A stretch of 64,000 bases of DNA, from positions 96,001-160,000 of the forward strand of contig CAWGVS010000002.1 of the NCBI GenBank assembly GCA_963826115.1, in the 5' to 3' direction. Position numbers and translations under genes: made by a program. Positions 19,659 through 20,702 of this stretch are shown piece by piece. Source of the stretch: an uncultured Candidatus Rokubacteria bacterium. GTDB lineage: Bacteria > Methylomirabilota > Methylomirabilia > Rokubacteriales > DASRDR01. Within the stretch, counting starts at the first letter, position 1. Each line of letters opens with the position of its first letter. A model generated the notes under the pieces. That model had not been told where the DNA came from. It ran no database searches and saw only the letters and a list, made by a program, of their open reading frames with translations.

Positions 19659-20651
19659 CTAGGCCTCGAAGGCGCGCTCGCGCTGGGCCCGGAGCCGCTC
19701 GAGCTCGGCCGCGTCGAGGCGCATGCCGAGGGACAGGTTCATGTCCGTCAGGATCGTCTTGATCTCGTTGAGCGACTTCTTGCCGAAGTTCTTGGTCTTC
19801 AGGAGCTCGGCCTCGCTCTTCTGCACGAGGTCCGCGATCGTGCGGATGTTCGCCGTCTTGAGGCAGTTGTAGGCGCGCACCGAGAGCTCGAGCTCATCCA
19901 CGCTCCGGAAGAGGTTCTCGTTCAGCTCGAGGCTGATCTCGGTCTTCGGGTCCTCCTCGGACTCGAGACCGGTCGGGAAGCGGCAGAGAAGGTTGAAGTG
20001 GTCCTCCAGGATGAGGGCCGCCTCGCCGACCGCGTCCTCGGGCGACACGCTGCCGTTCGTCCAGAGCTCGAGCACCAGCCGCTCGGCGCCCGGCTTCCGC
20101 TTGGCGGGCTCCACCTGGAAGTTCACCTTCTTGACGGGGGAGAAGTCTGCGTCCATCGCGAGCGCGTTGATGGACAGCGTCTCCGACTCCACCTTGTCCG
20201 CGGGCACGTAGCCGCGCCCCTTCTCGACGTGGACCTCCATCTCGAGGGTCACGTCGCGCTCGAGCGTGGCGAGCGGCTGCTCCGGGTTGAGGATCACGAG
20301 GTCGTGGTCCGTCTCGAAGTCGCTGGCCTTGGCGACGGCCGGCCCGGTCACCCGCAGGCGGATCAGGCGGCTCCGCTCCCCGTGGAGCTTGAAGACCACC
20401 CTCCGGAGGCTGGACAGGATGTCGAGGGAGTCCTCGGTGGCGCCCGTGAGGAAGGAGAACTCGTGGAGCACCCCGTCGATCTTGATCCACGTCGGAGCCG
20501 CGCCCTCGATCGAGGACAGGAGCACCCGGCGGAACGCGTTGCCGACGGTCAGGGCGAAGCCGGGCTCGAAGGGCTCGACCACGAACACGCCGTGATCGGG
20601 CTGGACCTCCTGCCACTCGTGCTTGCGGGGAAGCTGGATCGCGGTGGTCAT
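19659..20651 (-). CDS. rpoA: RNA polymerase alpha subunit, stand-alone divergent paralogue
   Basis: [65 protein letters not shown]; no rpsD or rplQ neighbours. Confidence 0.93.
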
Positions 20652-20696
20652 GAAACCTCCTCAAGTGACACTGGGCGGGGTCAGGGACGAACGCAC

Positions 20697-20702
20697 ATTA
20701 TA
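20697..20702 (-). promoter_or_regulatory. -10 element for rpoA paralogue
   Basis: Minus strand TATAAT about 45 nt upstream of ATG. Confidence 0.55.

Follow-up and report, generated by a model that had tools for sequence, protein, structure and literature searches.

The gene at the locus

The stretch of DNA considered here, called the window throughout, comprises 64,000 nucleotides from an uncultured Candidatus Rokubacteria bacterium (GenBank assembly GCA_963826115.1, contig CAWGVS010000002.1, positions 96,001 to 160,000; in our numbering G000:C2:96001-160000). It contains a gene for the alpha subunit of RNA polymerase, rpoA, which we call A; a second rpoA, called B, lies in a ribosomal protein operon elsewhere on contig C2. 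The two paralogs are conserved as a pair across the order, each in its own gene context and each under purifying selection. Each has lost one of two motifs that are otherwise invariant and that its partner retains, and in two families B has also lost the entire alpha C-terminal domain (CTD). From these comparisons A and B are probably a subfunctionalised pair that forms an oriented A:B heterodimer like alpha1/alpha2 of Francisella, with A on the beta side and carrying the only alphaCTD of the family.

A lies on the minus strand at 19659..20651 of the window. Its open reading frame is intact, begins with ATG and encodes 330 amino acids before a TAG stop. The N-terminal, or assembly, domain occupies residues 1-235 (19947..20651, minus strand), within which PF01193 matches residues 26-219 and PF01000 residues 56-171 (E-values 1e-19 and 1.7e-26), and R45 is kept. 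The LHEFS motif, at positions 65-69 in E. coli numbering, is present at 20454..20468 (minus strand); this is the motif lost in B. The invariant loop R191..T196-D197-Y198 is replaced in A by a degenerate and shortened sequence, PAKRKPGAE, at 20082..20108 (minus strand). The alphaCTD, a helix-hairpin-helix domain, is encoded at 19746..19925 (minus strand), corresponding to C2:115746-115925 (PF03118, 1.1e-26). The protein scores above two NCBIfam rpoA equivalog cut-offs (NF003513, 377.5 vs 302 bits; TIGR02027, 324.3 vs 227.8). Orthologs share 91-96% identity with it at 11 genus-level loci and 62-80% in the order as a whole. After the CTD, all A copies have a conserved stretch of about 17 further residues (residues 314-330; window 19662-19712, minus strand), which the aligned canonical alphas lack.

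Two signals precede the gene, both read from the sequence: a Shine-Dalgarno GAGGAGG at 20656..20662 (minus strand), 4 nt 5′ of the ATG, and a −10-like TATAAT box at 20697..20702 (minus strand), which marks a putative promoter. Both are retained in 12/12 genus-level loci, and a TATAAT- or TATACT-like box recurs throughout the order. No public RNA data were listed for window 17000-24000. A consensus scan for a −35/−10 pair on the minus strand at A found none; the only site that it found is on the plus strand, a promoter-like TTGACA-17-TAGAAT at 20752..20780 that would serve the divergent mltG gene and has 11/12 consensus matches, against 0.1 expected in shuffled sequences. The mltG gene itself (YceG-like; PF02618, 6.7e-85) lies at 20821..21930 on the plus strand. 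Next come an acyltransferase gene of the PlsC type and the argininosuccinate lyase gene, likewise divergent from A. A is flanked on its other side by comEC (16731..19643, plus strand; PF03772, 1.5e-58, and DUF4131), whose start codon is uncertain. There are no ribosomal protein genes near A, which sits between comEC and mltG and does not hold the rpsD-rplQ position. An earlier note on this DNA had described a full-length rpoA in this setting, with its own TATAAT and GAGGAGG and no ribosomal genes, and the domains, the neighbours and the sequence confirm that description. The residue changes that it listed are likewise present: EPFEPG, SSLRR in place of LNLK, GNAFRR with R45 kept, the shortened PAKRKPGAE, and CTD motifs that are intact.

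The second rpoA gene and the rest of the genome

A search of the whole genome located B at C2:212267-212971, 96.6 kb from A on the same contig, in an operon of the order infA-...-rpsM-rpsK-rpsD-rpoA-rplQ. A is thus not the sole rpoA of the genome. A canonical copy in the ribosomal operon had been expected; the operon copy exists, but it is B that is the more aberrant of the two. It has no CTD; its 249 amino acids consist of the N-terminal domains and a short acidic tail (PF01193, 8.2e-19; PF01000, 5.8e-18; no match to PF03118), and it falls under the TIGR02027 cut-off (210.4 vs 227.8 bits). The stop codon of B overlaps the start codon of rplQ (ATGA), so that there is no space for a remnant of the CTD.

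The genome has a single complete rpoB and a single rpoC. Both lie outside the window (rpoB, C2:235806-239757; rpoC, C2:231556-235532), and each is split over several reading frames in the assembly; the break in rpoB consists of one extra G in a run of G residues within a conserved motif. The splits look like long-read indel error, and frameshifts seen in a single genome of this assembly are not to be trusted. A partial rpoB is found at G000:C8:28-3006, at the very start of contig C8. It has 97% protein identity to the copy on C2, which sits near the end of that contig, and probably reflects two overlapping strain variants; contamination of the genome is put at 5.34%. A second polymerase with its own beta subunit was considered and rejected, given this identity and the position of the piece at a contig end.

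Reciprocal loss of two motifs

Residues were counted in 18 A sequences, 26 B sequences and 33 canonical alphas, the last comprising 11 from sister orders, 21 from other phyla and that of E. coli; the aberrant second copy of genome G123, described below, was left out. H66 is found in 33/33 canonical alphas, 18/18 A and 1/26 B, and E67 in 33/33, 17/18 and 1/26. A retains H66, E67, F68 and S69, and B shows the mirror pattern, in which positions 65-69 are lost and the loop at 191-198 is kept. R191, present in all 33 canonical alphas, is kept in 26/26 B and in 1/18 A. D197 (31/33 canonical) and Y198 (30/33) are likewise present in 26/26 B, and neither occurs in any of the 18 A sequences. K86 (32/33 canonical, 21/26 B) and K200 (26/33 canonical, 23/26 B) are both replaced by R in every A sequence (0/18 for each).

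The loop varies in length as well as in sequence among the 18 A rows, and the PAKRKPGAE of the window is four residues shorter than its counterpart in E. coli. When expressed as a consensus fraction, positions 65-69 score 0.32 in B and 0.99 in A, and positions 191-198 score 0.53 in A and 0.95 in B. By this measure each lost segment is free of constraint in the clade from which it was lost and under strong constraint in the partner. Judged by the residues that are invariant in canonical alphas (R45, H66/E67, and R191 with T196-D197-Y198), each paralog is an incomplete alpha, A lacking the loop and B the reverse.

In E. coli, beta is reported to protect residues 30-55 and 65-75 of alpha, and beta′ residues 175-185 and 195-210; the K86A substitution and an insertion at position 200 impair the binding of beta′ (PMC3294249). 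The 65-69 motif falls within the 65-75 segment. Read against these footprints and mutants, A looks like the beta-side subunit (alpha-I) and B like the beta′-side subunit (alpha-II). Two positions in the cluster of dimer contacts also differ between the copies. At position 35, 17/18 A sequences have F and 26/26 B sequences have Y; at position 50, A has S or A, and most B sequences have I or V. These differences would fit a heterotypic interface.

The C-terminal domain

In what follows f1 is the family of the window, f2 to f5 are other family labels within the order, and f12 is a family of a sister order. A PF03118 search of the whole genome gave a single match, that in A (C2:115746-115925), and a separate gene encoding the CTD alone was rejected on this basis. 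The CTD residues R265, N268, C269, G296, K298 and S299 are kept in 18/18 A rows. In f2, f3 and f5, B also has a CTD (18 rows, 324-347 amino acids). In this domain R265, K298 and S299 persist in 18/18 rows and N268 in 16/18; E261, which is invariant elsewhere, and C269 are each left in only 1/18. Among the same eight f2 genomes the mean identity of the CTD is 0.78 for B versus 0.955 for A.

In f1 and f4 the domain is gone from B: 8/8 genes sampled encode 237-255 amino acids with no CTD. All 18 f1 matches to B, and the f4 match, end at about residue 238, and 10/10 matches from f2 and f5 reach 315-318. A cluster of 21 metagenomic proteins has lengths of 245-249 amino acids among the 15 members listed. 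These lengths, the ATGA overlap with rplQ and the metagenome cluster led us to reject an assembly artefact as the cause of the missing CTD in B. Because the tree of A groups f1 and f4 together (100/98), a single loss of the CTD suffices; in the tree of B, f4 is placed differently with weak support (86/64).

Selection on the two copies

Within the genus, 11 comparisons of A gave ratios of non-synonymous to synonymous substitution rates (dN/dS) of 0.042-0.111, and 3 comparisons of B gave 0.219-0.261. The operon neighbours of B gave 0.045-0.071 (rpsD) and 0.190-0.257 (rplQ). On these ratios both copies are under purifying selection and are maintained, B more loosely.

These figures bear on the possibility that A alone is the working alpha, in the form of A2 homodimers, and that B is a decaying or accessory remnant in the ribosomal operon, where it might provide translational coupling to rplQ, modulate assembly or be used under special conditions. 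Such an account would suit the constraint on A, which resembles that on rpsD, and the higher ratio of 0.22-0.26 for B. It would also suit the equivalog scores, with A above the cut-offs and B below that of TIGR02027 (210.4 vs 227.8), the loss of the CTD from B in f1 and f4, and the 95.5% identity of the CTD of A among eight f2 genomes. It does not readily accommodate the loop: A lacks a segment whose R191 is found in 33/33 canonical alphas, and B has kept that segment (consensus fraction 0.95), a pattern difficult to account for unless B has some role in the core enzyme. B is, moreover, intact at every examined locus with an assembled operon, and a dN/dS well below 1 indicates selection on the B protein and not merely on an open reading frame. 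We regard A2 homodimers with a decaying or accessory B as unlikely.

Distribution and gene context of the pair

The tallies that follow include the unpublished genomes G050, G067, G077 and G106. At least two matches were found in 28/31 close genomes. Across the order, 183 genomes were searched for PF01000; at least two matches were present in 139, one in 38 and none in 6. Among genomes at least 85% complete, at least two matches occurred in 8/8 of f1 and 68/79 of f2. A single match is the rule in sister orders of the same class (29/34 genomes). Both copies are intact in relatives across the order; the earlier note had thought that absence of the gene from relatives, or decayed copies in them, would speak against a specialised alpha.

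A and B are on one contig in seven genomes (G000, G004, G008, G013, G014, G048 and G128), and the idea that they come from two organisms binned together was rejected on that ground. Four of the one-copy genomes lacking B were checked. Three of these, among them G050, are missing rpsD too, and the contig of the fourth stops just past rpsD; the missing B in the four is a matter of assembly gaps. B lies between rpsD and rplQ at every locus with sufficient flanking sequence. Of the 39 A-type loci listed, which belong to f1, f2 and f4, 36 have a divergently transcribed mltG match next to A, and the three exceptions are short loci. comEC adjoins A only within the genus, at the f1 loci, and is not found within the flanks of the f2 loci.

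Several irregular loci deserve mention. On contig DATJFY010000114.1 (L041), titled Verrucomicrobiia, an A-type rpoA has mltG-plsC-argH beside it, as is usual in the order; the title of the contig or its binning is probably wrong. L140 (G047:C124) and L143 (G082:C191) are short contigs in bins of different orders, which have rpsM-rpsK-rpsD-B-rplQ matches at the same locus positions with nearly equal identities. They are probably the result of cross-bin contamination, which accounts for the "second copy" in G047. Second matches were also recorded in G068 and G122. L142 (G082:C57:11500-17000) contains a third, A-like alpha with 55% identity over the N-terminal domain and a CTD that lies in a different frame. 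Normal A and B copies are present in the same genome, and the third gene may come from contamination or be an additional copy in decay. In L030 (G013:C6:51677-55126), from the same genus as the window, A and mltG are both broken, and there are 112 gaps in 3508 bases aligned with the window locus. Decay of A to a pseudogene in G013 was rejected, since the assembly is noisy and mltG is broken too.

Origin of the two copies

Two trees were made, a careful one of 44 hand-picked rows (10 A, 14 B and 20 canonical, 8 of the latter from sister orders) and a quick one of 77 rows. In the careful tree A and B each form a clade (100/100 and 100/99, respectively), with stems of 0.37 and 0.32, and all 20 canonical alphas lie beyond one branch of length 0.26 supported at 100/99. 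The quick tree joins A and B at a support of 91. Independently of either tree, seven derived residues are common to A and B and rare in the 33 canonical alphas: W16 (0/33), A36 (1/33), W58 (2/33), K87 (1/33), A170 (2/33), E199 (2/33) and F228 (2/33). These shared residues, together with the finding that A and B are each one clade, suggest a duplication inside the lineage. We read them as a probable duplication of rpoA in the stem of the order, after which both copies evolved faster, as has been argued for Francisella.

The tree allows some latitude, which weighs against this origin. An approximately unbiased (AU) test of a topology with B beside the sister-order alphas and A elsewhere gave a delta lnL (difference in log-likelihood) of 20.3 and p 0.114, and that topology was not rejected. 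On the tree alone A could be of foreign origin, and both stems are subject to long-branch effects. A might thus have been acquired horizontally and have taken over the CTD-dependent functions, an account of origin only, compatible with any functional reading. The AU test leaves room for it, and A is slightly nearer than B to the alphas of Nitrospirota and Acidobacteriota (identities of about 50% and about 43%). The seven derived residues common to A and B and rare elsewhere speak against it, as do the 100/99 split of A and B from all other rows and the location of the A-type genes seen, all of them on contigs with the synteny of the order, including the mltG-plsC-argH contig titled Verrucomicrobiia. 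We consider a horizontal origin of A quite improbable.

Natural comparisons

The sole genome of f3 (G020, 73% complete) yielded just a B-type operon alpha, in which the 65-69 motif, the loop and the CTD are all kept (L029). No copy of A was found in this 73% complete genome, in which mltG-plsC-argH (L154, G020:C406:5683-9702) is preceded by purA and not by A. If A is truly absent from f3, an unpartnered operon alpha that has both surfaces is as the heterodimer model predicts; one incomplete genome is insufficient to establish this.

Genome G123, from a sister order (f12), has a canonical operon alpha and a second full-length alpha about 4 kb away (L129, G123:C3:119000-130000). The second alpha keeps HEF, has a degenerate loop at 191-198 and a long branch (0.87). 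Most of the seven residues common to A and B are missing from it, so that it looks like the product of a separate duplication.

A search of 1.84 billion representative proteins with B as query led to GBR76562.1 (P0009), a protein of 526 amino acids named for Candidatus Termititenax persephonae, with 34% identity to B. Its first module has the loop but neither the GV.HEFS stretch, which contains the 65-69 motif, nor the CTD. In the second module the HEFS motif and the CTD are present and the loop is four residues shorter. The reciprocal pattern is the same as that of A and B, but in one polypeptide and in a different phylum. GBR76562.1 is a single sequence in a one-member cluster, and the fusion may be an error, such as a missed stop codon. 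Another protein, P0010 (664 amino acids, from IMG), consists of two full alphas fused; P0009 and P0010 may be either natural covalent pairs of alphas or products of missed stop codons. P0007 was rejected as a double alpha, since its halves are an exact repeat and it is an artefact.

Proposed assembly of the enzyme

The scheme that we favour would run as follows. A duplication of rpoA in the stem of the order would have been followed by reciprocal decay. A, standing alone beside mltG, would have kept the beta-facing 65-69 motif and the alphaCTD and lost the 191-198 loop, with K86 and K200 changed to R. B would have stayed between rpsD and rplQ, keeping the loop and losing the 65-69 motif, and in f1 and f4 the whole CTD as well. 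The core enzyme would then be built on A:B, with A at alpha-I in contact with beta and B at alpha-II in contact with beta′, and the RNA polymerase of f1 would have one alphaCTD, that of A. The earlier note had proposed a beta-side specialised alpha in a heterodimer. This fits the reciprocal loss of interface residues (H66/E67 in B, R191-Y198 in A), and the tree and the dN/dS ratios show two clades with purifying selection on each; the partner, however, is a faster-evolving paralog, CTD-less in this family, and not a canonical alpha. R45, which the note took as a contact of A with beta, is indeed kept in A, but it is kept in B as well, and the asymmetry lies elsewhere than at the residue concerned in Francisella.

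Beyond the latitude of the tree, several points weigh against a heterodimer of this kind. Heterodimerisation, orientation and the single-CTD enzyme are predictions from comparative sequence data, and the 77 rows in which motifs were counted were hand-picked from 155 matches. R45 is kept by both copies (A 18/18, B 26/26), as are most of helices H1 and H3; homodimers are compatible with these features, and the R45 asymmetry of the Francisella type is absent. The K86R and K200R changes are conservative, and R200 is found in 7/33 canonical alphas. The assignment of A and B to sides is indirect, being drawn from E. coli footprints and mutants by way of one paper, and the 195-210 footprint takes in only part of the loop at 191-198. 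The importance of B may be declining, in that its dN is about four times that of A and it has lost a whole domain. One copy only was found in 38/183 genomes, with the cause checked in four, and the one incomplete genome of f3 suggests that a B-type alpha can stand alone.

Some of the same observations would suit polymerases that coexist as A2, B2 and AB, with two, one or no alphaCTDs and differing promoter preferences, an idea that was reportedly first proposed for Francisella, before the heterodimer was shown there. R45 and the dimerisation helices are kept in both copies, the two genes are in separate transcription units, so that the ratio of A to B could be regulated, and the B-type gene of f3 is apparently self-sufficient. 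Against such a mixture, the reciprocal loss of motifs predicts that A2 would lack one contact and B2 the other, and the genome has a single complete rpoB and a single rpoC, the second rpoB piece being 97% identical and at a contig end. Coexisting forms seem to us slightly less probable than A2 homodimers with a decaying or accessory B, and the oriented A:B heterodimer is the reading that we carry into the comparisons below.

Relation to known alpha pairs

As late as 2026 a review describes the bacterial alpha subunit as a homodimer (PMC13374769). The alpha of E. coli (NC_000913.3) resembles the pair described here in its fold families, in R45 and in the DNA-binding residues of the CTD, which are those of A. 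Unlike the pair, alpha2 of E. coli is the product of one gene, with identical protomers that each have both motifs and with two CTDs per enzyme.

To our knowledge, Francisella is the one case in which an alpha heterodimer has been shown biochemically; the pair described here is known from sequence alone. The alpha1 and alpha2 subunits of Francisella form a heterodimer whose genes are rpoA1, in the ribosomal operon, and rpoA2, elsewhere (PMC3294249; solved chains 6wmp_A/B). A lineage-specific duplication of rpoA lies behind the Francisella pair, as it probably does behind the pair of this order; in both cases the branches of the two copies are long, and only one of the two genes sits in the operon. 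The determinants of beta and beta′ binding decayed asymmetrically in both systems, and the authors of the account of Francisella inferred a subfunctionalised, oriented heterodimer (PMC3294249). There are also differences. The Francisella pair is confined to one genus, and the pair here is order-wide in an unrelated phylum (183 genomes). R45 is present in both copies here and the asymmetry falls at 65-69 and 191-198. The operon copy here looks like the beta′-side subunit, the reverse of Francisella, and one paralog is without its entire CTD in two families.

Two rpoA genes per genome are also found in Chloroflexus species and Streptomyces avermitilis, for which, as set out in the portion of PMC3294249 on duplicated alphas, the dimerisation and beta/beta′ regions have no drastic substitutions; in the order described here two invariant motifs have been lost, one from each copy, and a domain deleted. 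Archaeal Rpo3/Rpo11 and eukaryotic RPB3/RPB11 and AC40/AC19 are obligately asymmetric pairs derived from an alpha-like ancestor, in which, as these sources present it, the second-largest subunit is faced by one partner and the other partner is the smaller, reduced one (PMC3294249; PMC13374769). Unlike Rpo11 and RPB11, B has the insert domain PF01000. In A the CTD of a bacterial alpha is retained, and the duplication is independent and much younger.

RNA polymerases with one CTD, described as oriented heterodimers, have reportedly been engineered in E. coli. Taken together, the pair could be a natural bacterial counterpart both of the Rpo3/Rpo11 asymmetry and of these engineered one-CTD enzymes, with the same loss apparently having arisen independently in Termititenax; we would give this joint reading an even chance. 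Searches of the literature on an rpoA pair in Rokubacteria or Methylomirabilota, on rpoA paralogs and on the RNA polymerase of Termititenax, judged partly by titles and abstracts, found nothing on this case.

Significance

If the heterodimer is real, a second case spanning an order would turn an exception into a recurring evolutionary path, and if the loss in Termititenax is truly independent, this form of decay would be a predictable path after duplication of rpoA. The pair would also illustrate duplication, degeneration and complementation within an essential machine in textbook fashion, with clean reciprocal decay of the two surfaces that contact the large subunits. There is a practical side as well. 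Annotation pipelines and marker sets assume one rpoA per genome, and in this order that assumption would lead to contamination being miscounted and genomes being misplaced in trees. For the study of alpha itself, the order offers a natural experiment that marks which surfaces are needed only at alpha-I and which only at alpha-II. For the organisms, the predicted single alphaCTD, fixed in position, is relevant to how this lineage reads UP elements and activators.

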